Source: Candidatus Onstottus arcticum (lineage in GTDB: Bacteria > Acidobacteriota > Blastocatellia > UBA7656). From it: a stretch of DNA of 64,000 nt. Below are positions 3,823 to 56,281 of the stretch, in pieces. The stretch covers positions 142,435 through 206,434 of the forward strand of contig JBBPIE010000006.1 of assembly GCA_038040485.1 (NCBI GenBank), read 5' to 3'. Made by a program: the position numbers and the translations under genes. The notes beneath the pieces were generated by a model. That model saw only the letters and a program-made list of their open reading frames with translations. It searched no databases and had not been told where the DNA came from. The stretch's first letter is position 1, and each line of letters starts with the position of its first letter.

Positions 3823-4247
3823 TCGAGGTAAGAAATCGCCGCAGTGCCAACTTCAAATTATGCGGACGCTCAACGGTCTCGTCGGCACTGCGGCGAGGGG
3901 GGATCGAAACTAGGGAGCGGTAGGTTCGATTTGGGGCGGGGCGACAGACAACTACAAGCCAATCTCGTATTAGGTCATCGCCGTTTTGAGGGAGCTGTTG
4001 TTACTGATATCAACTCGCATACCACAGCCGGCTGCGCCTGCCTTGAACCTCAACTCTTTGTGAATGCTCGCAATAAGCGGCGTCGATGGGTTAGGTCGGC
4101 TGACTGATTCAGCCAGAATGAAAGAAGCCGTTCAACGGTGTAAGCGATATTGACCGAGCGCTATCAGTGAGATGAACGATCGCGCAAAGAAGCGCGTCAC
4201 CCGATGACAAGGGCTGTCATCGCCGGGTCCCATCACGCGTCACTCCC

Positions 4248-4320
4248 TGGGAGCGCAGGCATCCCGCCTGCTGCTTGGTGGCGTGTGAGAAGAGGCAGGC
4301 AGGGATGCCTGCGCTCCCAG
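4248..4320. repeat. MITE/REP-like palindromic element, family A (termini TGGGAGCGCAGGCATCCC...GGGATGCCTGCGCTCCCA), copy 1
   Basis: A 24-nt left arm (4248-4271) and the right arm (4295-4320) are reverse complements, flanking a 23-nt loop. The element lies 6 nt downstream of the aminotransferase stop (4326-4328) and could act as its terminator hairpin. Confidence 0.65.
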
Positions 4321-4325
4321 AGGAC

Positions 4326-5540
4326 TCAACTCGTTATTGCCCGGCACATTCGCTCGACGCCTTCAGAGATCGCTTCCGGCGACTCCTTCGAGTAAGCCAG
4401 CCTCATCGTGTTTGCTCCGCTGCCGTCAACAAAAAAGGGCTGACCCGGTACGTAAGCAACACCGCCGGCGATGGCGCGGGGAAGAACTTCAGTGGCATCG
4501 ATCCGGTTTGCGAGCTCCAACAGAATGAAGAACCCGCCGATGGGCTTTGTCCACCGCGAGCCCGCCGGCGCGAAGCGCTCCAGCGCTTCGAGCATCGCGC
4601 GGCAGCGGACTTCGTAGAAACGGCGAAGCTCGGGCAGCCGCCGCTCAATCAAGCCCGAGAGAATTGCTTCAGCGACGATCGTCTGATCCAGGACACTCGA
4701 GGAGAGATCGGCCCCTTCCTTGGCTAGCTCGATCTTCTTCGCTATCGGCTCTGGCGCGCGCAGATACGCGGTTCGAATGCCGGGCGCGAGCACTTTGGAG
4801 AAAGTACCCAAATAGACGACTCGCTCCGGCCGAAGCGCCGCAAGCGGAACCAGCCGCGCCCCTTCAGATTCGAAATACAGATCGAAGTAAGCGTCGTCCT
4901 CGATGATCAACAAATCGTGCTCGTCGGCTATCTCGACAAGCTGATGCCGCCGCTCGGTCGCAAGCGTCACCCCCGAAGGGTTCTGAAAATTCGGAATCGT
5001 GTAGATGCACTTGATGCGGCGGCCTTCTCTCGAGACCTGATCGAGCTTCTCGCGGAGGTCGCCGATGACGATGCCGCCGTCATCCTGCCGCACACCGATC
5101 ATCTCAGCTTGCGAGTTGTGCAATGCAATGATTCCGCCGATGTAACTCGGAAGTTCTACTAGCGCTATGTCACCCGGATCGATGATCACCCGCGAGATCA
5201 GGTCGAGACCCTGTTGAGAGCCGCTGGTCATAATGACTTCGGCGGACGAGACATGAGTCAACCCTCGTTCACGCAGAAGTCCGACGACCGCATCAACCAG
5301 GGCGGGCTGGCCCTTGGTCGGCCCATACTGAAGGGCGACGGGTCCTCGCTCGCGGATGACTCGCGAAGCGATCTCGGCAAGCTCCTCGATCGGAAACGTT
5401 TCGGCGCTGGGAGCGCCCGCCGCCAACGAGATCACTTCCTTGTTGCCCAGCAACGCAGTGAGCTTTCGGATCGCGTTCGGACGGATCCGGCGACCCAGCT
5501 CGGAAAGCATCTCGTCGTATTGGATTTCGGTTTTAAGCAT
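4326..5540 (-). CDS. PLP-dependent aminotransferase, class I/II fold (AAT-like / 2-aminoadipate transaminase-like)
   Basis: 404 aa with ATG start. Typical aminotransferase I/II blocks are present (LAAGAPS, NPSG, LIIEDDAYFDL, TFSKVLAPGIRTAYL with the Schiff-base Lys). Confidence 0.85.
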   Translation of the reverse strand: MLKTEIQYDEMLSELGRRIRPNAIRKLTALLGNKEVISLAAGAPSAETFPIEELAEIASRVIRERGPVALQYGPTKGQPALVDAVVGLLRERGLTHVSSAEVIMTSGSQQGLDLISRVIIDPGDIALVELPSYIGGIIALHNSQAEMIGVRQDDGGIVIGDLREKLDQVSREGRRIKCIYTIPNFQNPSGVTLATERRHQLVEIADEHDLLIIEDDAYFDLYFESEGARLVPLAALRPERVVYLGTFSKVLAPGIRTAYLRAPEPIAKKIELAKEGADLSSSVLDQTIVAEAILSGLIERRLPELRRFYEVRCRAMLEALERFAPAGSRWTKPIGGFFILLELANRIDATEVLPRAIAGGVAYVPGQPFFVDGSGANTMRLAYSKESPEAISEGVERMCRAITS

Positions 5541-6921: not shown

Positions 6922-7146
6922 ATGTCATACCGAACCATTAAAGAGCCGGAGCAGATCCGAAGCGTCAGCGTTTCCGACGTTATCGCCGCGGTCGAGGCGC
7001 TGGGCCCTTCCAAAACAGGTGCGATACGTCCCCGAGTCGCACGTGGTGGTGGTGGTTCGTGGTCCCATAGTTTCGGTCGGCGACATCGGCACTTCCGCGG
7101 GGCCGCCGCCAAGAAATCGTTTGCCCGAGCCGCCACGAAGAGATAA
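6922..7146 (+). CDS. hypothetical small basic Gly/Arg-rich protein (74 aa)
   Basis: ATG at 6922 (MSYRTIKEPEQIRSVSVSDVIAAVEALGPSK...RVARGGGGSWSHSFGRRHRHFRG). It ends 11 nt before the next gene. It sits in a lower-GC islet. No recognizable family. It may be non-coding. Confidence 0.2.
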   Translation: MSYRTIKEPEQIRSVSVSDVIAAVEALGPSKTGAIRPRVARGGGGSWSHSFGRRHRHFRGAAAKKSFARAATKR

Positions 7147-7157
7147 GCAACTCGCGC

Positions 7158-7763
7158 ATGGCCAAGCCTACCTACTCTGAACGCATATTCATTAACGTAC
7201 CCTTCGATCCTCGTTACCAAAGACTCTTCCGCGCACTCGTTTTCGTGATTCACGATTGTGGCTTCGTGGCACGCTGCGCCACTGAGGACGACAATAGTCT
7301 GCAGGTTCGCGTTGACAAGCTTTACGAGATAATTCGGACAAGCAAGTACAGCGTCCACGACATTTCGCGGCTGCACGCAAGGTACAACATGCCCCTAGAA
7401 CTGGGAATTGTCCTTGGAGCGAAACGGTTCGGCAATGCCCGACACAAGCAGAAACGTGCGCTGATTCTTGATACTGAGGCGTATCGCTACCAACGATTCT
7501 GTTCAGATATCGCGGGGCAAGATATCCGGGCGCACGAAAACGGGGTAGAAGGCTTGATCCGTAGCGTCAGGAATTGGCTTCGTGCGAGCCCGGATACCCA
7601 GGGAATCATCTTGCCGAGTGCTGACTTCATCTATCGTCGCTACCGTGCATTCTCCCGGCGTCTGCGAGGACTCTGCGCGGCTGTTAACCTAGATCCCGAA
7701 GACCTGCATTTCCTTGATCTCAGGGTCCTTGTCACTGGCTGGCTCTCGGTTAATCCGCGCTAG
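7158..7763 (+). CDS. hypothetical protein with TIR-like (DUF1863/ThsB-like) sequence pattern
   Basis: 201 aa, ATG start, GC roughly 52% against a background of about 62%. The pattern IFINVPFD (beta-A) ... TSKYSVHDIS ... YNMPLELGIVLG (possible catalytic Glu) ... KRALILD matches the order of the TIR/SLOG core blocks by eye. No HMM was run. Confidence 0.35.
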   Translation: MAKPTYSERIFINVPFDPRYQRLFRALVFVIHDCGFVARCATEDDNSLQVRVDKLYEIIRTSKYSVHDISRLHARYNMPLELGIVLGAKRFGNARHKQKRALILDTEAYRYQRFCSDIAGQDIRAHENGVEGLIRSVRNWLRASPDTQGIILPSADFIYRRYRAFSRRLRGLCAAVNLDPEDLHFLDLRVLVTGWLSVNPR

Positions 7764-8206
7764 CGTTGCTTTGGGAGCACGGCGGTTCGCGATACTCGGG
7801 CACGCTGTCAGGCCGGCATTTCCATAAAGCTGGCGGGCTCTGGTCGCGCTCAATGTCTTGTTATCAACCGCGATGAAGGGTTTGCTCCCTTACGCTGAAT
7901 TGTACATGGGCCGGGTTCGGCACCGTGATTGGGAACCGAAGCCCTGCGACCGGGGCCGCCACGTACTTCTAAAAGCTCGACAGCGACGAGATCCGGCGGT
8001 TCAGAGTCTTCAGGCGTCGCGCCTTTTAATGGTTGTGCCTCGAACGATGAAAACACGCCTGGCAGGGGCCTCAAGATCGAACAGCTCTCCCATGAAATGG
8101 CCCTAGCTTGCCTGTCCTTTTGAAACCATGAATAATTGAGGTCCGACTTGCTCTCGCGCGCCAGGACGCCTCGCACAGAGGCGCGCGGTTGTGCTTCTGT
8201 GCCAGT

Positions 8207-17207: not shown

Positions 17208-17245
17208 CTTTCACCTCGCAATCAAGTCGGACATATCATTCGCCG

Positions 17246-17342
17246 GGAGCGCGGAAGTAGCATAGACTTTAGTCTGTGTCTGCGACCCACGAAAAGAGCT
17301 CCACGGACACAGACTAAAGTCTATGCTACTTCTGCGCTCCCA
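17246..17342. repeat. 97-nt near-perfect hairpin (36-bp arms, 25-nt loop) with family-A-like termini GGGAGCGCGG...CTGCGCTCCC
   Basis: Left arm gggagcgcggaagtagcatagactttagtctgtgtc (17246-17281) and right arm gacacagactaaagtctatgctacttctgcgctccc (17307-17342) are reverse complements with 1 mismatch. It lies between the cytochrome gene start (17207) and tRNA-Ser. Confidence 0.8.
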
Positions 17343-19023: not shown

Positions 19024-20568
19024 GTGATCGGTTTGAATTCTCATGAGAGTAAGTGGTTTAGTGTTGCGGTGCTTTCGCTCCCTGTGACTGCCGCGAGCCG
19101 ACGCCTCGAGCCCGGCAGCTTGTTTGTCTGGATGGCCGCCGCGGCTTTGGCCGGCGCCGCGTGCTACCGCTACTTCCAACAGCCGACGTTTTGGCTGGAC
19201 GAAGCTTTCATTGCGGTCTCGCTGCGCACGCCGTCGCTTCACGTCATCTTTGGCCGGCTCGAGTACGGCCAGCTCTTTCCCCGGCTCTACCTCGGCGCGA
19301 TCGCGATAGTCCGAGAAGCGCTCGGGTATCAAATCTGGTCGTTGAGGCTGCTCCCGTTTTTGAGCTTCGTCGCCGCGACTCTGCTCTGGGCGCGGCTACT
19401 TGTCCTGAGAGCACGATGGCACGCGGCACTGGGGTTTCTAGCCGGCGCGCTGTTGATCGGAGCGACGTCCTGGCTCGAACAAGCGATTCAACTCAAGCAG
19501 TACACGTTTGACGTCGTGCTGGCTCTCGCGCCGTTTCTTATCGACGACTCGCTTTTCGATGAAGCTTTGATTGTTGGCAAACGCCGCGCGAGGCTTATAG
19601 CATTCGCGCTGCCGTGTGCGCTGTCGTACACGTATCCGTTTGCGATGGGCGCTCGCGTTGCGGGCTGGTACTTGCAGCGAGCCCGAGGGGCCGGATGGCG
19701 TCTCAACAAGACCTCCGTGCTTGTGCTGGCAGGCGCGATTGTTGCGGCGCTGGCGGGAGTTTGGTTCGCGGATCATCGTTTCAATATCTATGATCGCGAA
19801 TCCTATTCGGCTTACTGGAGCGACTGCATCCTCGGCGAGTGCCTGAAGGAACACGCGTCCGAGGCGCCGCGACTGCTCGCGAAGTTCCTGTGGGGCTGGC
19901 AGGGACGTCAGCCGTTTGTGCTCGCGTTGCTCGCGCCGCTGCAAGCGCTCGGAGTTTATTCGGTGATAAGGAGACTGAAGCGCCGAGAGCCCGAGGAAGG
20001 CACCGGCGGATGGGGTTCGCGGTCTCTCGGCTCATTGATCTTGCTCATCGGGGTGATCCTCGCGAGCCTGCTCGTCAAGTACCCTATCTGCTCGGGACGA
20101 GTCGTCCTGTTCACTCAAATTCACACGCAACTAATGGCAATCGAAGGAGCGCTGCTGCTTCTCGCTTCGCTCAGACAGCGACGAGCCGCAATGGTGCTCG
20201 CCTGGCTTTGTGTCGCCGTTGTCGCGTTTCATTCAGTTCGAGCTTATGCGCGTTTGGCTTCGAGTGAACCCGCGGAGAATCTGCGACCGGTGCTTTCGAT
20301 GATCAAACCCGAAGAAGCGGACGCGGTGCTTGTGCATTCGTGTTCCACGGCCCAGGTGCGCAGTTTGCCCGAGCCGTTGCCGTTAAGGCGAGTCGTATTT
20401 GCAAACGTGCGTACCCGGCCGCAGCAGGGTGAGAAGACGTGGGTGTTGTGGACTCACCTTGGAAACGCCGATTGTGTGAAGGAGCTTGAGCAACTTCGGG
20501 GCTGGTCGCGTAGCTGGCAAATCGTCCACGAAGGCCCAGGCCGCGGATTGGCGCTTGCGGAGTTTTAG
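19024..20568 (+). CDS. polytopic membrane protein, putative GT-C-fold glycosyltransferase (ArnT/PMT-like)
   Basis: 514 aa. GTG at 19024 or ATG at 19132. More than 10 TM segments. First loop FWLDEAFIAVSL...LEYGQLFPRLYLG resembles the ArnT/GT39 DE loop. Directly upstream of a clear GT39 gene. Confidence 0.55.
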   Translation: MIGLNSHESKWFSVAVLSLPVTAASRRLEPGSLFVWMAAAALAGAACYRYFQQPTFWLDEAFIAVSLRTPSLHVIFGRLEYGQLFPRLYLGAIAIVREALGYQIWSLRLLPFLSFVAATLLWARLLVLRARWHAALGFLAGALLIGATSWLEQAIQLKQYTFDVVLALAPFLIDDSLFDEALIVGKRRARLIAFALPCALSYTYPFAMGARVAGWYLQRARGAGWRLNKTSVLVLAGAIVAALAGVWFADHRFNIYDRESYSAYWSDCILGECLKEHASEAPRLLAKFLWGWQGRQPFVLALLAPLQALGVYSVIRRLKRREPEEGTGGWGSRSLGSLILLIGVILASLLVKYPICSGRVVLFTQIHTQLMAIEGALLLLASLRQRRAAMVLAWLCVAVVAFHSVRAYARLASSEPAENLRPVLSMIKPEEADAVLVHSCSTAQVRSLPEPLPLRRVVFANVRTRPQQGEKTWVLWTHLGNADCVKELEQLRGWSRSWQIVHEGPGRGLALAEF

Positions 20569-20581
20569 CATTCAAGTTCCT

Positions 20582-20620
20582 GGTCCTTGGTCATTAGTCC
20601 TTGGTACTTAGTCCTTAGCC
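20582..20620 (+). repeat. three 13-nt direct repeats (GTCCTTGG core) immediately upstream of the GT39 start codon
   Basis: ggtccttggtcat / tagtccttggtac / ttagtccttagcc, then ATG at 20621. Confidence 0.5.
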
Positions 20621-22480
20621 ATGAGCGACAAACAGATCGAGCGTGCGAAGCTAATCGGTTTTTTTGCGGGCGTTGCCGCTCTCAGCTTAATCCTGCGGAT
20701 CTCCTACTCAGGCCATCTCTTTCAAGATGATGGGTTGTGGTTCACGGCTGCCGAGCAAATTCTGCGCGGCAAGGCGCTCTACTCTGAAATCTATTTCGAC
20801 AAGCCGCCGGCCCTCCCGCTCGTTTATGCGGCGCTGTTCAAGCTCTTTGGCGCCCACATCATAATCATCCGGCTGTTTACCGTATGCTACTCAGTCGCGA
20901 TCTCAGCCGTGCTCTATTTCTTCGGGTCGTGGCTGTACGACCGCCGCACGGGCATGTTGGCGGCCGGGATGTTCGCGTTTTTCAGCACAATTTCTGTGAA
21001 CAACCACGTGCAAGGACTCAACACTGATTTCCTGATGCTGCTGCCTTACACGCTTGGCGCGTATTTGCTTATTCGCGCATGCTTCGAGCAGCGCGGCTTG
21101 TTGGCGCTGGCTGGAGGCGCGCTGGCCGGTATCGCCATCCAGACCAATCCCAAAGGCTTCTTCGACCTGATGTTCTTCGTTTTGATTTTGCTCATGGGTT
21201 GGGCGTGGGGACGTCTCAACAAAGACTCTCAGTTCGTTGATTTCAAATTGAGTTTTGCGTCTGCGACGCGATTGCTCGCGCTGTCGGCCGCCGGCGTTGT
21301 TGCGGGCGCGATTCCGTTCGTCGCTTATGTTGCGATCACCCATTCGCTTTCTGACTACTGGTTGTCGGTCTGGGTCTGGGGCACCCGCTACGCAAGCTAT
21401 TCGGCGACGCCGCCTGCCCTGGGTCGAGGGACATGGCTCTCAGCGACCTACCTGGTGCGCAATAACACATTGTTGTTTGGGCTCGCGTTTGTCATAGCAG
21501 TCACGGTCCGGCAAGGGATTCATTATCGAAAGGCTCAGCGAGGGCAAGCGAGTAGTGAGGAAGACCCTGAGAGCGCGGGCATCCTGCCCGCCGACCTCGG
21601 GAGCGAGCGCTTGTTGGGGCAAGAGATGCGGGCAGGATGCCCGCGCTCCCAGGATTTCAGATCAGATGTGACGATTCTTTTATGGCTTGCTGTGTCGTAT
21701 GCAGGAGTGATGGCAGGCGGCCGATTCTACTCCAACTACTTCTTTCAAATCCTGCCGAGTCTTTGCCTGATCGGCGCTCGGGGACTGATCGGCATCACCT
21801 CCGCTTTGAAGGCGAAACCGCCAGGGTTGCGGCGCGCCACAACCATCTTGATAGCGATTTGTTTTGTTATCACGGCCGTTCGTTTTCACACGCGCACTGC
21901 TGTTCTAGCGGCCGGCTGGATGCGCGGAACGAGCGGTGGAACAAACGGCGGTTGGTATCACAACGAACTCAATCGCGAGGAGCAATTGGTCGCTGCGTTG
22001 GTGAGAGACCTGCCTGATGGCGCGGATCGGATCGAGCGCGCGGGCGTGGAGGCGTTGCGGGCCGGCCGGCCGCCGGGCACGGTCGAGGGACCTGCGGACT
22101 ATCTTTTTGTTTGGGGATCGCGAGACGAAATCTATTACTGGTCAGGCCTGCTTCCAGCGTCGCGGTACTTAAGCGCGCAGCCGCTCACCGGCGTGCCTGC
22201 GGATACCCAGCACGTGGATGACAAGAGCCGTTCTATTCTCAGCGAAGAGGGGATGGCGGCCGCGCGAGCTCAATTGGTCCGCGACCTCGATCGGGCTCGC
22301 CCGAAATACATCGTCGACGAAATTGGTTTTTTCAATGCCGCTCTATCGATCCAGTCATACCCTGAACTCAAAGCGTTCATGAGAAACTACAGAGCCATCG
22401 GTGCGGCGGGCCGCTTTCTGATTTATCGCTGGAAGGAAGAAGATGATTCAAGCGGGGCGCAAGGCGCACCAGGTAATTAA
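20621..22480 (+). CDS. glycosyltransferase family 39 / ArnT-like (PMT_2) GT-C membrane glycosyltransferase; carries an in-frame family-A repeat insertion
   Basis: ATG start. N-terminal motif YSEIYFDKPPALPLVYAALFKLFG is the GT39/GT83 (Y/F)xxKPP loop. Multiple TM helices. Large C-terminal soluble region. Confidence 0.8.
   Translation: MSDKQIERAKLIGFFAGVAALSLILRISYSGHLFQDDGLWFTAAEQILRGKALYSEIYFDKPPALPLVYAALFKLFGAHIIIIRLFTVCYSVAISAVLYFFGSWLYDRRTGMLAAGMFAFFSTISVNNHVQGLNTDFLMLLPYTLGAYLLIRACFEQRGLLALAGGALAGIAIQTNPKGFFDLMFFVLILLMGWAWGRLNKDSQFVDFKLSFASATRLLALSAAGVVAGAIPFVAYVAITHSLSDYWLSVWVWGTRYASYSATPPALGRGTWLSATYLVRNNTLLFGLAFVIAVTVRQGIHYRKAQRGQASSEEDPESAGILPADLGSERLLGQEMRAGCPRSQDFRSDVTILLWLAVSYAGVMAGGRFYSNYFFQILPSLCLIGARGLIGITSALKAKPPGLRRATTILIAICFVITAVRFHTRTAVLAAGWMRGTSGGTNGGWYHNELNREEQLVAALVRDLPDGADRIERAGVEALRAGRPPGTVEGPADYLFVWGSRDEIYYWSGLLPASRYLSAQPLTGVPADTQHVDDKSRSILSEEGMAAARAQLVRDLDRARPKYIVDEIGFFNAALSIQSYPELKAFMRNYRAIGAAGRFLIYRWKEEDDSSGAQGAPGN
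21568..21653. repeat. family-A MITE/REP-like element, copy 3, inserted in-frame inside the GT39 CDS
   Basis: Left arm tgagagcgcgggcatcctgcccgc (21568-21591) and right arm gcgggcaggatgcccgcgctcccagga (21628-21653) are reverse complements. Translated in frame as ...ESAGILPADLGSERLLGQEMRAGCPRSQ... Confidence 0.65.
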
Positions 22481-23865
22481 TGCCCGGCCCGCGTCCGGTA
22501 CTCAGTGGTTCCACTATGACGGCTCAACATCGAAACCGGACCCTTGCAGTTGCGGTTTGGTGCGCAGCATTGATCCTCTCTGGGGTTGGCCAAGCGCAAG
22601 CCGTGTTGGAACGCATTCAAGCCGCAAAGTCTGACATCAACCTCTCGCCGCGGCGGGCTCCGCTTCTGGGCGCCGATATGTCGTTCGCTTCCGACCCGTC
22701 GCAGCTAATCGAAGGATGGCTTGACCAGGAGAAGGGCGACGCGATGGCAGCCGCGTTCAACAGCGCCGGTTTGAAGAGCCTGCGTTTTCTGTTTGGCGGT
22801 CTCTACTCACCACTTGGTCCGGAAGCGTCGGCGAGAGTGAAAGCCGAGAACAAAGGAACGAATCCGTATCAGTGGTTTCCGCTCGACAGCTACGTCGAGT
22901 TTATAGCCCGGCACAACTTCACGACCATCGTCGGCGTCAACGTCGAAGAAGGCCCCGTCGTCGCGCGCGACGCGATTCAAAAGTTCATCGACCGCGGGTT
23001 GAAAGACCGGATCGTCGCAGTCGAGCTATCAAACGAACCGTGGCTGAATCACCGCCCGTGGCTGCCCGAAGACTTTGCCGCGCGCTCCGCCGACGTGATC
23101 GATGGATTGACGCCGCTTGGTGTTCGATTCGCATTGCCGCTTACGGTGGGCGGTGACAACAACACGCCGACGAAGCTGACCGACAACGAGTGGGTCACAC
23201 GAATGCTTCGCGCGCTCTCGGCGCGAATCGACCTCAAGAATCGCAATGACATCTACGGTGTTGTGCATCTGTACTCAAAAGGAATGCGAGGCAAGAGCGT
23301 CGAGTTCTTCAACAAAGTCGTCCAGCCGTTTGCTCCGCGCATGCGCTACGTGGTCACCGAGTTCAACATTCGGCTGAGCCTCGAAGGCAACCCGCACCTT
23401 ACGAACAAGTACGCGATGGAATTTGCTCTCAAGCTCGCCGACGTGATGAGCCGCCCGGAGATCGAAGCGATGTACACGCACTCGGTCCCCCATCACTCGG
23501 TTCTCTATTGGGCGAACGGCCGGAAGTACGCGACGGTTGTGGGAGGCCGCGATGACAAGCTCACCGGAGAGGCGATGTCACGCGGCTGGCATCTGACGCC
23601 GACTGGAAAAGTGTACGATCTGTACTCGCGTCTTGCGTGGAACGGAGACGTAATCTTGTATCGTGGCGGCGATAAGCTGAGCTATTGGGCTGTCAGGCAA
23701 GGGAACGGCCGCGTGGTTATGACTCTGATTAACGACAGCAATACGGCTGCTAAGAAAAAAGTGAACATCGAAGGCCGCGAGATGAGCTTGAGCGCGCCGC
23801 CGCGTTCAATCGTCTGTTTTGAGAAAGACGGAAAAGAAATCGAACGGCTTGTGCTTCGCTACTGA
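22480..23865 (+). CDS. secreted glycoside hydrolase, clan GH-A TIM-barrel (GH5/GH30/GH39-like)
   Basis: Start ATG overlaps the upstream stop (TAATG). Signal peptide MTAQHRNRTLAVAVWCAALILSGVGQAQA. VELSNEPW (acid/base Glu in NEP) and VVTEFN (nucleophile Glu) are spaced as in clan GH-A. Confidence 0.6.
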   Translation: MPGPRPVLSGSTMTAQHRNRTLAVAVWCAALILSGVGQAQAVLERIQAAKSDINLSPRRAPLLGADMSFASDPSQLIEGWLDQEKGDAMAAAFNSAGLKSLRFLFGGLYSPLGPEASARVKAENKGTNPYQWFPLDSYVEFIARHNFTTIVGVNVEEGPVVARDAIQKFIDRGLKDRIVAVELSNEPWLNHRPWLPEDFAARSADVIDGLTPLGVRFALPLTVGGDNNTPTKLTDNEWVTRMLRALSARIDLKNRNDIYGVVHLYSKGMRGKSVEFFNKVVQPFAPRMRYVVTEFNIRLSLEGNPHLTNKYAMEFALKLADVMSRPEIEAMYTHSVPHHSVLYWANGRKYATVVGGRDDKLTGEAMSRGWHLTPTGKVYDLYSRLAWNGDVILYRGGDKLSYWAVRQGNGRVVMTLINDSNTAAKKKVNIEGREMSLSAPPRSIVCFEKDGKEIERLVLRY

Positions 23866-23876
23866 GGATCAGGGGG

Positions 23877-23903
23877 CAGCAGGCAGGGATGCCTGCGCTC
23901 CCA
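23877..23903. repeat. solo family-A terminal arm (GCAGCAGGCAGGGATGCCTGCGCTCCCA) 12 nt after the GH stop
   Basis: Identical to the right arm of copy 1 (4295-4320). No partner arm nearby. Confidence 0.5.
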
Positions 23904-24252
23904 CGGCATTCATTTCGCCATTGTCGAAGGAATCGGAGGGGTGCCGGATGAATCCGCGATGCTGTCCGGTGGCGGCGCGGACTTGCCACCGGCTAAATTC
24001 CGTCGCCACTCTGTGGCGGAATGGTCAGCAACTCACTAACACCACAAAACCGAAGACTCGCGGTGGAACGAATCCATAAGGCTCAGCGCGTCTCCCCTTG
24101 TCACCTTCGGCGAACGTCTGCAAAAATGCATCGAGGCCGCTGGAACGCTTTGCCCGCGCGTTGCGTTCAAGCGTTTGGCCCGTCAGCCTCAAACAGGCAA
24201 GCTCAACTGGTCGAGCCCCGAACACTCCCGATAGCACCGAAGTCAAAGCCGG

Positions 24253-28714: not shown

Positions 28715-28870
28715 CTAGTGTCCTAAAGTTGTGTTGCTCGTTCTGTCGGCGAATCGAGCAACCGCCAAGACGCCAAGAGCGCCAAGATTCTCAACGGATT
28801 CTTGGTTTAACCTTGGCGTTCTTTGCGTCTTGGCGGTTTTCCAATCGAGCAACACACTAATAGGACACTA
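28715..28870. repeat. about 155-nt nested inverted-repeat element upstream of the moaA promoter
   Basis: Outer arms ctagtgtcctaaagttgtgttgctcg / cgagcaacacactaataggacactac. Inner imperfect arms ccgccaagacgccaagagcgccaag / cttggcgttctttgcgtcttggcgg. AATCGAGCAAC occurs as a direct repeat. Confidence 0.6.
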
Positions 28871-28887: not shown

Positions 28888-28946
28888 CGTGTCGGTAGCT
28901 CGACCGTCAGGGAGAGCTCTCCCTCACGGTCGAGCTAGCTGACACG
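28888..28946. repeat. family-B 56-59-nt palindrome (TGTC(G/A)GTAGCTCGACCGTCAGGGAGAGCTCTCCCT(C/A)ACGGTCGAGCTA..GACA), copy 1
   Basis: Near-perfect self-complementary sequence between the mobB-like stop (28959) and the nested IR. Confidence 0.7.
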
Positions 28947-31518: not shown

Positions 31519-31554
31519 TGTGTAGCTGCTTCACAAGTGTGAAGCAGCTACACA
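31519..31554. promoter_or_regulatory. perfect 36-bp palindrome TGTGTAGCTGCTTCACA-AG-TGTGAAGCAGCTACACA (operator-like)
   Basis: Exact 17-nt inverted arms. A third direct copy of the 17-mer lies at 31606-31622 and a degenerate copy at about 31569-31587. Confidence 0.8.
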
Positions 31555-31605
31555 TAGCCCGTAACCTGTTACACACCCGTAGCTTGAGCGCAGAACCGAG
31601 AGTCG

Positions 31606-31622
31606 TGTGTAGCTGCTTCACA
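31606..31622. repeat. third copy of the TGTGTAGCTGCTTCACA half-site
   Basis: Exact match to the left arm of the 36-bp palindrome, 52 nt downstream. Confidence 0.8.
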
Positions 31623-32109
31623 CTTTCGCCATTCTAAGTCTCGCGCGGCCGAACCACGTAAGTCACTGAATTCACAAACCTGCTGGTCGGGCCACGGCTT
31701 GATCCCGCAGCGGCACGCGCATTGCCCTACAGATCGGCGTAACGAGCGGAAAAAGCTGAGGCCAATCGTGGAGGCCAAAGCCAAACCACAAGAACGACAA
31801 AGGAGACTGCCATGTTGTGTGACGCAAGAGTACTGATGGACGACTAATTAGCTTAGCCTGAACAACCTTGCGAAGGCCCAGCGATTCATTGAGGGCCTAG
31901 CCACAGACCACCTTCGTCTATGCGTTAAGGACGGAGGGCGCGGAAAGCCAAAAAGGGAGATCCGTATGGCTCGCGTAGAAACCTCTTCAAGTATGGGCGT
32001 GATCTTTGACGAAATCGGAATCGAAGAAGTGATCGCCCCTCGTCTCTGAACTGCTAAACCGCCGGGCAACCGCGGTAAGTTCAACCGAAGCGCGCACTAG
32101 GTTGCGAGC

Positions 32110-53122: not shown

Positions 53123-53174
53123 TCGAGCTGACAACCTTCGGGTGTAGTCTGGGTATTGGTTCAGTTTGAGATTT

Positions 53175-53230
53175 GTGTCAGTAGCTCGACCGTCAGGGAG
53201 AGCTCTCCCTAACGGTCGAGCTACTGACAC
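53175..53230. repeat. family-B 56-nt palindrome, copy 2
   Basis: tgtgtcagtagctcgaccgtcagggagagctctccctaacggtcgagctactgacaca is near-identical to 28888-28946. Confidence 0.75.
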
Positions 53231-53295
53231 AAGTTTCAAAGTGAACCACCACCGTAGTCTGAGTGTCCTTGGTCTTTGGTGAAGACCATGCAGAG

Positions 53296-54157: not shown

Positions 54158-54376
54158 CCTGGGAGCGCAGGCGTCTCGCCAGCAGGTCTCACTACATCAA
54201 TCACTGGGCGAGATTCAGTTTCTCGCCGCAGTCTCACAACTATCAATCACGGCAGGCGAGACGCAGCTTGCCGTCCGCGGTCTCACAACTATCAATCACT
54301 GCAGGCGAGACGCAGCTTGCCGCCCGCCGGTCTCACAACTATCAATCACGGCAGGCGAGACGCCTGCGCTCCCAGG
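54158..54376. repeat. family-A MITE-like element, copy 5 (219 nt): termini CCTGGGAGCGCAGGCGTCTCGCC / GGCGAGACGCCTGCGCTCCCAGG flanking about 3.5 tandem 50-nt internal repeats
   Basis: It fills the whole gap between the M28 peptidase stop (54379) and the amidohydrolase start (54153). Internal units tctcacaactatcaatcac(g/t)gcaggcgagacgcagcttgccg(t/c)ccgc(g/c)g. Confidence 0.7.
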
Positions 54377-54378
54377 CT

Positions 54379-56055
54379 CTATTTCCCGTTATGCACGACC
54401 TCGCCTGGGAGCGGCTTGCGCGGGAGCTTCTCGGCTCGCATTGCGGTGTTGTAGACGAACGCTGCCATGATCACGGCCGCCTGCTTCATATCGCCTTCCT
54501 GAATCCGGTCGAACACATCCATGTTCGAGTGATGGGTTCGGCTCTCGTACTCAATTTCGTCCTGAATGAATTGAAAGCCCGGCAAGCCAACTCCATCGAA
54601 GGATTGGTGATCAGTCCCGCCCGTGTTCGAAACCGTAAGCGTTGTAGCGCCCATATCCTTGAACGGTGCAAGCCACGCCCGAAAGATCGGCCGCACTAAC
54701 TCATTTCCTTGCATGTAGACACCGCGAATCTTGCCCGTTCCGTTGTCCAGATTGAAGTAGCCGGCGAACCTCTCGTGCTCCGACTTCAGTGCGAGCTGCA
54801 CCGGCGGGCGAGGCGTATTGGGTTGGTCGGGAGGCTGTGGGTCTCCGAATCGCGGCTCGAGACCAAGCCGTTTGCCAAAGTGCTCGGCCACATAAGCCCG
54901 CGAGCCCAGCAAGCCTTGCTCTTCTCCGCTCCACAAACCTATGCGTATCGTTCGCCGCGGCTTCAGGCCGAGCGCTTGAAGGATCCGAACTGCTTCCATG
55001 CAGACGGCCGACCCGGCGCCGTTATCAGTCGCGCCCGTCCCCGCGTGCCACGAGTCGAAGTGTGCGCCCAACATCACCACCTCGTCCTTCAAGTCGCTGC
55101 CTGGAATCTCGGCGACTACGTTGTGACTCATCAAATCCTGGTCGTGATACCTGGCTGAGATATTTATCTCGATTTCGACAGCCGCTTTCGCGGCGATCAT
55201 CCTGATGATCCGGTTGTACTGCTCGACCCCGACGACAACCTGTGGAATGACGAACGGCGCATCCTTGTCGCGAACGTTCTTTCGCTTGTCGACGGGAGTG
55301 CCCTCCGGGTAGGAGAGAGTGGCGCCTTGCACGAAAACGGTTCCGCCGTCGCCACGGCTCGGCTCGAGCACAAGTGCCGCGCCTTCTGCGTAGATCATCT
55401 CCCACTTCTTGTTTTGAAGCGTTCGCTCCGCCAGTTGCTCGGGAGTGAAATTGCGAAACCTGCCTCGGTCTCCGGCGACGGGTGGCTCGGCGTTGGCAAG
55501 CTTCAACAAGCCTTCATCGGTTTCTCTCGTAGCCAGCGGTTCGAAGTGAGCCTTCACTTCCCGCGTTGGCGAGAGCAAAACGATCGCGCCTTTCAGCTTG
55601 CCTTTGTACTGGTCGAGATCCGCCGCCGTCTTGGCGTCGAACAGGATCGGCTTGCCTCGCAGCGCGCCGTTTGTGCTTGCTGACCACGCTTTCGGATAGG
55701 CGATCAGCGGAACGTAATAAGGCTTGATCAGCCCGGCTGAAAAGTTTTCAAGCGACCAGCCACGTCCGAACTGCCACGCCTCGAGACGCCCGTTCTGAAG
55801 TCCCCACTCTGTGAGCTTCTGTTTTGCCCACTGCTGCGCCGCGCGAATGTTCGGCGAGTTGGTGAGCCTCGCGCCTTCAACATCGGTCAAGTAGCTCAGG
55901 ATTTCCATCACCTGAGATCGCTTGAGCCCTTCTTCTTTGATCTTGTTGATTGCATCAAGGTCCACCTTTTCCTGCGGAGCCTGCCCGCGCACAGCGACGC
56001 CCGAGCCGCCCAGCGAAGCAATCACAAACAGAACAGTCAGATAACGCTTAAACAT
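54379..56055 (-). CDS. M28-family peptidase (aminopeptidase with PA domain), secreted
   Basis: ATG at 56055 with SD GAGGGAGG. Signal peptide [24 protein letters not shown]. Zinc-ligand blocks [17 protein letters not shown] and EEQGLLGS. Confidence 0.85.
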
Positions 56056-56281
56056 TTCGCCTCCCTCGTGAAATGGATTCTTATTCTTGAGTGACACCTA
56101 TCCGGGCGGCCCTCCGTGGCCGCCCCTCCACACAAACGTTTAAGTCAGTTCGCGTTTGAAGGGGCGGCCACGGAGCAACCCTGCCCGTTTTGCGGGCCAA
56201 TGCCCTTTGAGAAACCCTACCCGTAAGCTGTTGATTCCATTAAACAGCTTCCGGGTGGTTTCTAAGGAGGGCCGACCCTAA

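Follow-up and report, generated by a model that had tools for sequence, protein, structure and literature searches.

The closest described relatives of the element treated here are several kinds of small repeat. The repetitive extragenic palindrome (REP) sequences, together with the bacterial interspersed mosaic elements (BIMEs) and REPINs, are known from E. coli and Pseudomonas, along with the REP-associated tyrosine transposases (RAYTs), also called TnpA_REP (Bertels & Rainey 2011, PMC3116915; Ton-Hoang et al. 2012). Published REPIN-RAYT systems are described as lineage-specific and vertically inherited (PMC5581495). The Rickettsia palindromic elements (RPEs), in turn, are inserted in frame within genes that code for protein (Ogata et al. 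2000, summarised in PMC10969869). In addition, intragenic copies have been described for the ERIC repeats, for other enterobacterial small mobile sequences and for QMITE1 of Coxiella (Delihas 2007; PMC5896051; PMC10969869), and a 2024 review calls in-frame gene fusions of small repeats "not unusual" (PMC10969869). Here, we describe an 88-nt palindrome at positions 21566-21653 of a 64-kb stretch of DNA (contig JBBPIE010000006.1; referred to as the window), which lies inside the gene for a membrane glycosyltransferase of an Acidobacteriota metagenome-assembled genome (MAG). Our overall account, which we consider highly probable, is that this is a REP doublet sitting in frame in a tolerant loop of the protein, where it persists as a passenger.

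The palindrome consists of two arms of 26 nt each, at 21566-21591 and 21628-21653, which in an inverted-repeat search were complementary at 25 of 26 positions (96%). The sole mismatch is the A at 21570, where the consensus has a G. Within the 64-kb window, 0 chance matches to the 21-nt core of the arm are expected. When 21560-21660 was folded as RNA, the energy obtained was -68.1 kcal/mol, as compared with -39.6 +/- 3.4 kcal/mol for 200 shuffled versions, none of which equalled it (z -8.4). The GC content of the element (73%) is also higher than that of its host gene (58%).

Each arm is built from a 25-nt REP-type module, (C)TGGGAGC-GCGGGCA-TCC-TGCCCGC, which is made up of a conserved GGGAGC flank, a 7-bp stem and a 3-nt loop. 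The arm therefore has the form of a REP unit, an imperfect palindrome of about 20-40 nt that is rich in GC and can fold into a stem-loop. The left module spans 21567-21591 on the plus strand (CTGAGAGC-GCGGGCA-TCC-TGCCCGC, reading as flank, stem, loop and stem) and is translated as (E)SAGILPA. The right module spans 21628-21652 and has the exact consensus CTGGGAGCGCGGGCATCCTGCCCGC on the minus strand; its plus-strand translation is (M)RAGCPRS(Q). The two are separated by a 36-nt spacer at 21592-21627, which contains a small internal hairpin. When the spacer was compared by blastn to the window and to 117 loci fetched from other genomes, it matched its own locus only, so that no source copy of the whole doublet was found among them.

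The element is read through as part of the 619-residue open reading frame (ORF) at 20621-22480 on the plus strand. It contains no stop codon in the frame used and encodes ESAGILPADLGSERLLGQEMRAGCPRSQ, which corresponds to residues 317-344. The original prediction had placed a palindrome at 21568-21653 inside this ORF, without a break in frame and with a contribution of roughly 28 residues. All of this is confirmed, including the peptide quoted there, and the full palindrome extends 2 nt further to the left. Five of the six reading frames of the element are free of stops. Any insertion with a length that is a multiple of three would have left the ORF open.

The host protein is a GT-C-fold membrane glycosyltransferase. 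It matches Pfam PMT_2 (PF13231) with 38 bits, against a gathering cut-off of 26.1, and has an N-terminal domain with multiple transmembrane (TM) helices and an acidic motif in the first external loop. Here, the residues that follow TM1 include an invariant D36 (with D37 nearly so) and then Y58, D60, K61 and P62, with P63 being nearly invariant. The AlphaFold2 model, which was built on 120 orthologs, has a pLDDT of 87.8 and a pTM of 0.90, and its Foldseek matches are to AglB, STT3, PglB, ArnT and PMT with E-values of 1e-8 to 1e-4, which identifies the GT-C fold. NCBI labels the protein "glycosyltransferase family 39 protein"; GT39 is thus the name given in that annotation, and the assignment made here reaches the level of PMT_2 and the GT-C fold.

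Judged from the ortholog alignments, the segment is an insertion and not ancestral coding sequence. The segment, or any other repeat-derived peptide, is present in 0 of 119 aligned orthologs. A conserved homologous segment, which is what an ancestral origin would have predicted, was looked for in these 119 proteins and none was found. The linker that runs from residue 291 to the invariant D349 is 57 residues long in the host and is the longest of the 120, as its length in the other 119 is 24-50 residues (median 34). Removal of 28-29 residues brings the host linker within the ortholog range. In alignments of both 21 and 120 orthologs, a single stretch shows hypervariability of sequence as well as of length, and the element falls in it; this stretch is encoded by 21521-21667 on the plus strand (residues 301-349) and lies between TM helices 282-312 and 341-365. 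The view that the segment is a repeat-derived insertion, which the original prediction had put forward for checking against orthologs, is thereby upheld.

The closest ortholog, P0002, comes from a soil metagenome, is 75% identical and lacks the element. In a codon alignment of the two genes, the sequences match through GAA-RAC-CCT and resume at GAY-TWC...AGA-TCA-GAT, with unrelated sequence in between. Native sequence is therefore recognisable through the CCT at 21566-21568 and again from the GAT at 21653-21655. Most simply, the inserted block would be 21569-21652, which is 84 nt or 28 codons and encodes ESAGILPA...RAGCPRSQ. On this simplest reading, the CCT and the G at the two ends of the palindrome would either be native or be of ambiguous origin.

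Two independent Logan assemblies (SRR28961256 and SRR28961290) contain the identical gene together with the element, which is therefore not an assembly artefact. Such an artefact, or an ancestral coding sequence that happens to be palindromic, has the open reading frame in its favour and nothing more. Set against this are the absence from all 119 orthologs, the letter-exact match to a multi-copy repeat, the outlying composition and the recurrence of the same sequence in independent assemblies, which leave an origin of this kind barely conceivable.

The host gene looks intact and functional. All 45 invariant columns of the 120-sequence alignment are retained, as are the near-invariant ones, on both sides of the element. 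The ratio of non-synonymous to synonymous substitution rates (dN/dS) relative to P0002 is 0.16 for codons 1-300, 0.16 for codons 350-619 and approximately 0.76 for the linker. In the AlphaFold2 model, the residues of the element (316/317-344) fall in a coil at 313-340 with a pLDDT of 52-56, which is flanked by helices 282-312 and 341-365. The latter is followed by a short helix (371-376), two long hydrophobic helices (378-396 and 401-435) and then the C-terminal soluble domain. The original prediction had the segment in a soluble loop after the last N-terminal TM block. The loop is indeed seen, as a low-pLDDT coil, but its position is different, as it lies between TM helices and three TM helices follow it. 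That such a loop tolerates an insertion, as was also proposed, agrees with the hypervariability of the linker and with the coil in the model.

Loops rich in lysine and arginine are found at 106-111, 200-211, 297-312 and 397-405 of the host protein. The loop that holds the element begins with the R/K-rich sequence RQGIHYRKAQRGQ, which, when combined with the positive-inside rule, suggests that the loop is cytoplasmic. Counting helices from a start with the N-terminus inside, which puts the DD motif in the first external loop, the loop is probably cytoplasmic and the C-terminal domain probably periplasmic, as in solved GT-C enzymes.

The opposite outcome is that the insertion has inactivated the glycosyltransferase, or is in the course of doing so. 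Here, the gene would be a young pseudogene, with a blocked or misfolded loop or with a hairpin that impedes translation. The arms are complementary at all positions except one, so that there may not yet have been time for visible decay; the linker has become the longest of the set; and the predicted mRNA hairpin is very stable at -68 kcal/mol. These points are countered by the retained frame, the lack of a stop, the invariant residues on either side and the fact that dN/dS is the same downstream of the element as upstream. Furthermore, the site is a naturally hypervariable, disordered loop, the module is tolerated elsewhere in essential genes such as thiC, mutL and asnB, as explained below, and all three assemblies in which the locus was seen have the allele with the element, none showing an alternative. 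Inactivation, which the original prediction had offered as one of two outcomes, is accordingly disfavoured and we regard it as unlikely.

The claim that the element belongs to a repeat family also holds, as related copies are present in the window. An intergenic doublet at 4247-4320 stops 6 nt short of the minus-strand ORF 4326-5540, at the 3' end of that ORF; the arms of the doublet are GCAGGCA...TGCCTGC, with compensatory A/T in the stem. A solo module, GGGAGC-GCAGGCA-TCCC-TGCCTGC, is found at 23874-23900 on the minus strand, 9 nt past the stop of the gene at 22480-23865. A composite copy at 54159-54375, also intergenic, borders ORF 54379-56097 (minus strand) at its 3' end. This copy has two inverted variants of the form GCAGGCG-TCT-CGCCTGC placed around about three tandem units of approximately 59 nt, each of which holds a partial module, ggcaggcgagacgc. 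A further intergenic palindrome at 17245-17341 is an uncertain member: it is 97 nt long, with 36-nt arms that are 97% complementary, and has only the termini GGGAGCGC...GCGCTCCC in common with the others. Its interior is AT-richer and unrelated to the REP module family, and it may represent a second family with the same ends. In total, the window holds 4-5 module loci, and all except the glycosyltransferase copy are intergenic, mostly at the 3' ends of genes. No direct repeat or target-site duplication was seen in the flanks of the element, which are ...GAGGAAGAC(CCT) and (G)ATTTCAGATC, and the same is true of 4247-4320 and 17245-17341.

The module is also widespread outside the window. In a scan of GTDB with one genome per species, the 21-nt arm core was present letter-for-letter in at least 117 stretches. 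Among the matches listed, approximately half form inverted pairs whose spacers measure 11-132 nt, and the others are solo copies and one tandem array with a 33-nt period. This array, in a Verrucomicrobia MAG (L111:1521-1652), has four head-to-tail units of 33 nt, each made up of a REP module and a 12-nt spacer, and the period is divisible by three. Pairing of the small stem is maintained by compensatory changes, which exchange G-C and A-T at three stem positions; it is kept in 456 of 504 cells, with 72 distinct partner arms.

Two of the fetched loci connect the module to a transposase. In L019, from a member of the Pyrinomonadaceae, a 202-residue ORF lies between perfect 45-nt inverted repeats that start with the module (arrangement at 1660-2390). 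Each repeat comprises the module and a second small hairpin, ATGAGCGCG-AAG-CGCGAAC. In L020 (arrangement at 7075-7814), inverted modules likewise stand on either side of an ORF of about 200 residues. Both proteins have an HUH motif and a YxxxNP motif. Their scores of 88.3 and 93.9 bits exceed the cut-off of 80 for the NCBIfam equivalog model NF047646, "REP-associated tyrosine transposase", and both also pass Pfam Y1_Tnp. The two RAYTs are 46% identical to one another.

The element is therefore better described as a REPIN- or BIME-like REP doublet of a RAYT-associated family than as a MITE (miniature inverted-repeat transposable element), because the arm itself is a small conserved hairpin, a target-site duplication is absent and the module flanks RAYT genes in two genomes. 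The MITE-derived loop of the original prediction thus stands as far as an origin from a mobile repeat is concerned, and not as to the class of repeat. A classical MITE would be a deletion derivative of an insertion sequence (IS) that has a DDE transposase and terminal inverted repeats. Its short form with inverted termini would fit, as would the varying interiors of other copies (17245-17341 and 54159-54375) and the lack of a RAYT within the window. However, target-site duplications are missing here and at the other window copies checked, the presumed terminal repeat is itself a conserved little hairpin, found singly and in tandem as well, the module accompanies RAYT genes, and neither an IS-like ORF nor an IS with matching ends was seen in association with it. 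We consider a MITE origin highly improbable.

The following mechanism is proposed. The REP doublet, composed of two inverted 25-nt modules and the 36-nt spacer, would be a non-autonomous element that is mobilised by a Y1/HUH RAYT acting on single-stranded hairpin DNA. A single-strand mechanism of this type would account for the lack of a target-site duplication. In the host genome, mobilisation by a RAYT is the most likely route. A block of about 84 nt (28 codons) would have entered the GT-C glycosyltransferase gene, possibly replacing a few codons, and would have landed in the part that encodes the hypervariable and probably cytoplasmic loop between two TM helices. As the block is a multiple of three and has no stop in the frame used, the ORF would have stayed open. 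The protein would have gained a disordered loop extension of 28-29 residues. The insertion would then be a tolerated passenger, neutral or mildly deleterious, that owes its survival to the site and manner of its landing and not to an added function. Both the neutrality and the recency of the event are presumed.

Several points weigh against this account. The net difference in length from P0002 is just 12 codons and not 28, which would mean that the linker was shorter in the ancestor or that the block took the place of a few codons. The boundaries of the block and its pre-insertion state are drawn from a 75%-identical ortholog within a fast-evolving linker, and their exact positions are estimates of that kind. 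No empty-site allele or very close relative was found, as the protein stands alone in its cluster at 90% identity, with the next relative at 75%; the 24-nt left flank had 0 matches in JGI metagenome contigs. Neither a motif scan nor tblastn with the L019 and L020 RAYTs detected a RAYT in the 64-kb window, and among the matches listed, RAYT genes flanked by the module were seen in just 2 of the fetched loci. The placement of the loop on the cytoplasmic side comes from the helix count and the positive-inside rule, not from a computed topology. Finally, an open ORF is no proof of activity if the insertion is very recent, as the near-perfect complementarity of the arms might indicate.

The glycosyltransferase is one of several genes that carry the module in frame. 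Seven further cases were verified with Pfam. The module is in frame in ThiC (L018:98-2173, minus strand), where it falls within 16 residues that are inserted when compared with the solved enzyme of Caulobacter; in an AddA/UvrD-like helicase-nuclease (L033:3490-7677, plus strand); in the linker of MutL (L053:2-1897, minus strand); in asparagine synthase, AsnB (L068:1992-3926, plus strand); in the linker of a LigB-AMMECR1 fusion (L101:91-1635, minus strand); and at a domain edge of an A2M TED-domain protein (L007:1126-2268, plus strand). An AddB-like protein (L062:3-2618, minus strand) has two tandem in-frame modules. In the helicase-nuclease, MutL and the LigB-AMMECR1 fusion, the module is positioned between Pfam domains or just beyond one, and on the whole the sites are linkers or otherwise variable positions. 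The peptides derived from the module in these other genes are GSAGILPA, ERGHPAR and GQDA(R/C)AP. Other apparent intragenic copies, for example in L054, L065 and L010, were rejected, as the module precedes the true start codon or GC-rich sequence has produced an artefactual long ORF.

Recurrence in many genes could be taken to mean that the insertion has been co-opted, with the peptide acting as an interaction or regulatory loop, or with the hairpin acting as a barrier to decay of the operon mRNA or as a translational pause, and thereby adjusting how strongly the flanking genes are expressed. REP hairpins of E. coli and Salmonella stabilise upstream mRNA. The element lies in the second of three genes that appear to form an operon (ORFs 19024-20568, 20621-22480 and 22480-23865, where the last start overlaps the glycosyltransferase stop), and the solo module at 23874-23900 follows just past the last stop. 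On the other hand, only one lineage has the insertion, its residues have a disordered prediction and are simply the REP consensus in translation, and the copy is indistinguishable from intergenic ones. A terminator and promoter scan of 20400-24100 showed that the element is not terminator-like and that no T-tract follows it, and an Rfam scan of 20000-23000 (E <= 1) returned no known RNA family. Exaptation, which the original prediction gave as the alternative to inactivation, finds no support, since the inserted residues show no trace of being selected for and only one lineage has them. A functional role for the peptide or the hairpin is very unlikely, and the passenger account is retained.

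The two neighbours in the operon are less well defined. The ORF at 19024-20568 encodes 514 residues, appears to have multiple TM helices and has no Pfam match. The one at 22480-23865 encodes 461 residues and has a sub-threshold match only, which scores 19.5 bits against a cut-off of 22 for the GH30 C-terminal beta-sandwich. Elsewhere in the window there is a separate palindromic family: the 102-nt palindrome at 53152-53253, which has a perfect centre, shares the core TAGCTCGACCGTCAGGGAGAG / CTCTCCCT.ACGGTCGAGCTA with 28896-28937. Nested inverted repeats around 28896-28937 span 28716-28870. A cluster of inverted copies of TGTGTAGCTGCTTCACA, with 17-20-nt arms that are 100% complementary, is located at 31519-31625.

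The distribution of the module across phyla is a separate matter. Convincing inverted pairs of the 21-nt REP core GAGCGCRGGCATCCYGCCYGC are present in several phyla (contigs L004-L120; among the matches listed), with examples in L006, L020, L023, L027, L042, L045, L050, L059, L065, L104 and L112. Beyond the Acidobacteriota, the genomes with such pairs are labelled Verrucomicrobiota, Chloroflexota, Planctomycetaceae, Abditibacterium, Alphaproteobacteria, Methylovulum and Obscuribacterales, and those of the Alphaproteobacteria include an isolate, Rhodospirillaceae SYSU D60007. Only inverted pairs were used as cross-phylum evidence, and solo matches of a single arm in distant phyla were left out of it. 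By our own estimate, 596 Gb of uniform composition would yield approximately 2 solo matches by chance, and GC-rich genomes possibly tens. Identity across phyla is not what would be expected of REP/RAYT systems, and mis-binning of MAGs may lie behind part of it. The element had no blastn match in plasmid and phage collections, so a carrier for horizontal spread was not found there, and a literature search on the exact module strings found no paper.

For the gene itself, the annotation can stand: the glycosyltransferase is an intact GT-C enzyme, not a pseudogene, and one of its loops is extended by 28 residues that derive from the repeat; the odd residues of the loop should not be taken as a functional motif. 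The locus provides a clean case, beyond the obligate intracellular bacteria, of a selfish palindrome that survives in a coding sequence by being in frame and in a disordered loop of variable length. The letter-perfect inverted pairs in different phyla are a more interesting lead than the glycosyltransferase copy. If in-frame translation of the module in linkers proves systematic, then one horizontally spreading REP family would quite generally supply short, disordered linker peptides such as SAGILPA, ERGHPAR, GQDARAP and RAGCPRS. A survey of the module would bear on the spread of REP and RAYT sequences, on the growth of linkers and on GC-rich soil MAGs in which a "hypothetical protein" has been called spuriously.

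When compared with the known systems, the element most resembles the REP and REPIN sequences. Like them, it is a GC-rich, imperfect palindrome with a conserved 5' flank, and the family includes inverted doublets that form a long hairpin, solo copies and clusters. In the window, the family is mostly extragenic and at the 3' ends of genes; it lacks a target-site duplication and, in two other genomes, is inverted around a single Y1/HUH transposase gene. It differs in that the present copy is intragenic and translated, that the flank is GGGAGC and not GTAG, and that the spacers are 11-132 nt. It differs also in that the module is identical across several phyla (those named are Acidobacteriota, Verrucomicrobiota, Chloroflexota, Planctomycetota, Abditibacteriota and some Proteobacteria), whereas published REPIN-RAYT systems are described as lineage-specific and vertically inherited.

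The ERIC repeats and QMITE1 are likewise small palindromes that are usually intergenic and occasionally in frame inside ORFs. However, they belong to other sequence families and other hosts, and their presumed machinery is different, being that of IS-derived MITEs with terminal inverted repeats and target-site duplications. The RPEs share with the present element the property of being palindromic selfish DNA that lies in frame in unrelated, functional genes, where a peptide is added at tolerant surface or loop positions. They are about 100-150 bp long, have their own conserved peptide, occur in the obligate intracellular Rickettsia and have no known transposase. In contrast, the element described here is 84-88 nt long, is of a REP/RAYT-type family and is found in a free-living soil member of the Acidobacteriota. 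The RPEs serve here as a functional analogy. Passengers like this in-frame palindrome are already known from bacteria that include Rickettsia, and it is not a new mechanism. A larger claim is that GGGAGC-GCGGGCA-TCC-TGCCCGC is an unusually conserved, cross-phylum REP, repeatedly translated in the linkers of housekeeping proteins, which would make it an RPE-like source of linker peptides in soil bacteria; we advance this tentatively, as a somewhat doubtful extension of the likeness to the RPEs.

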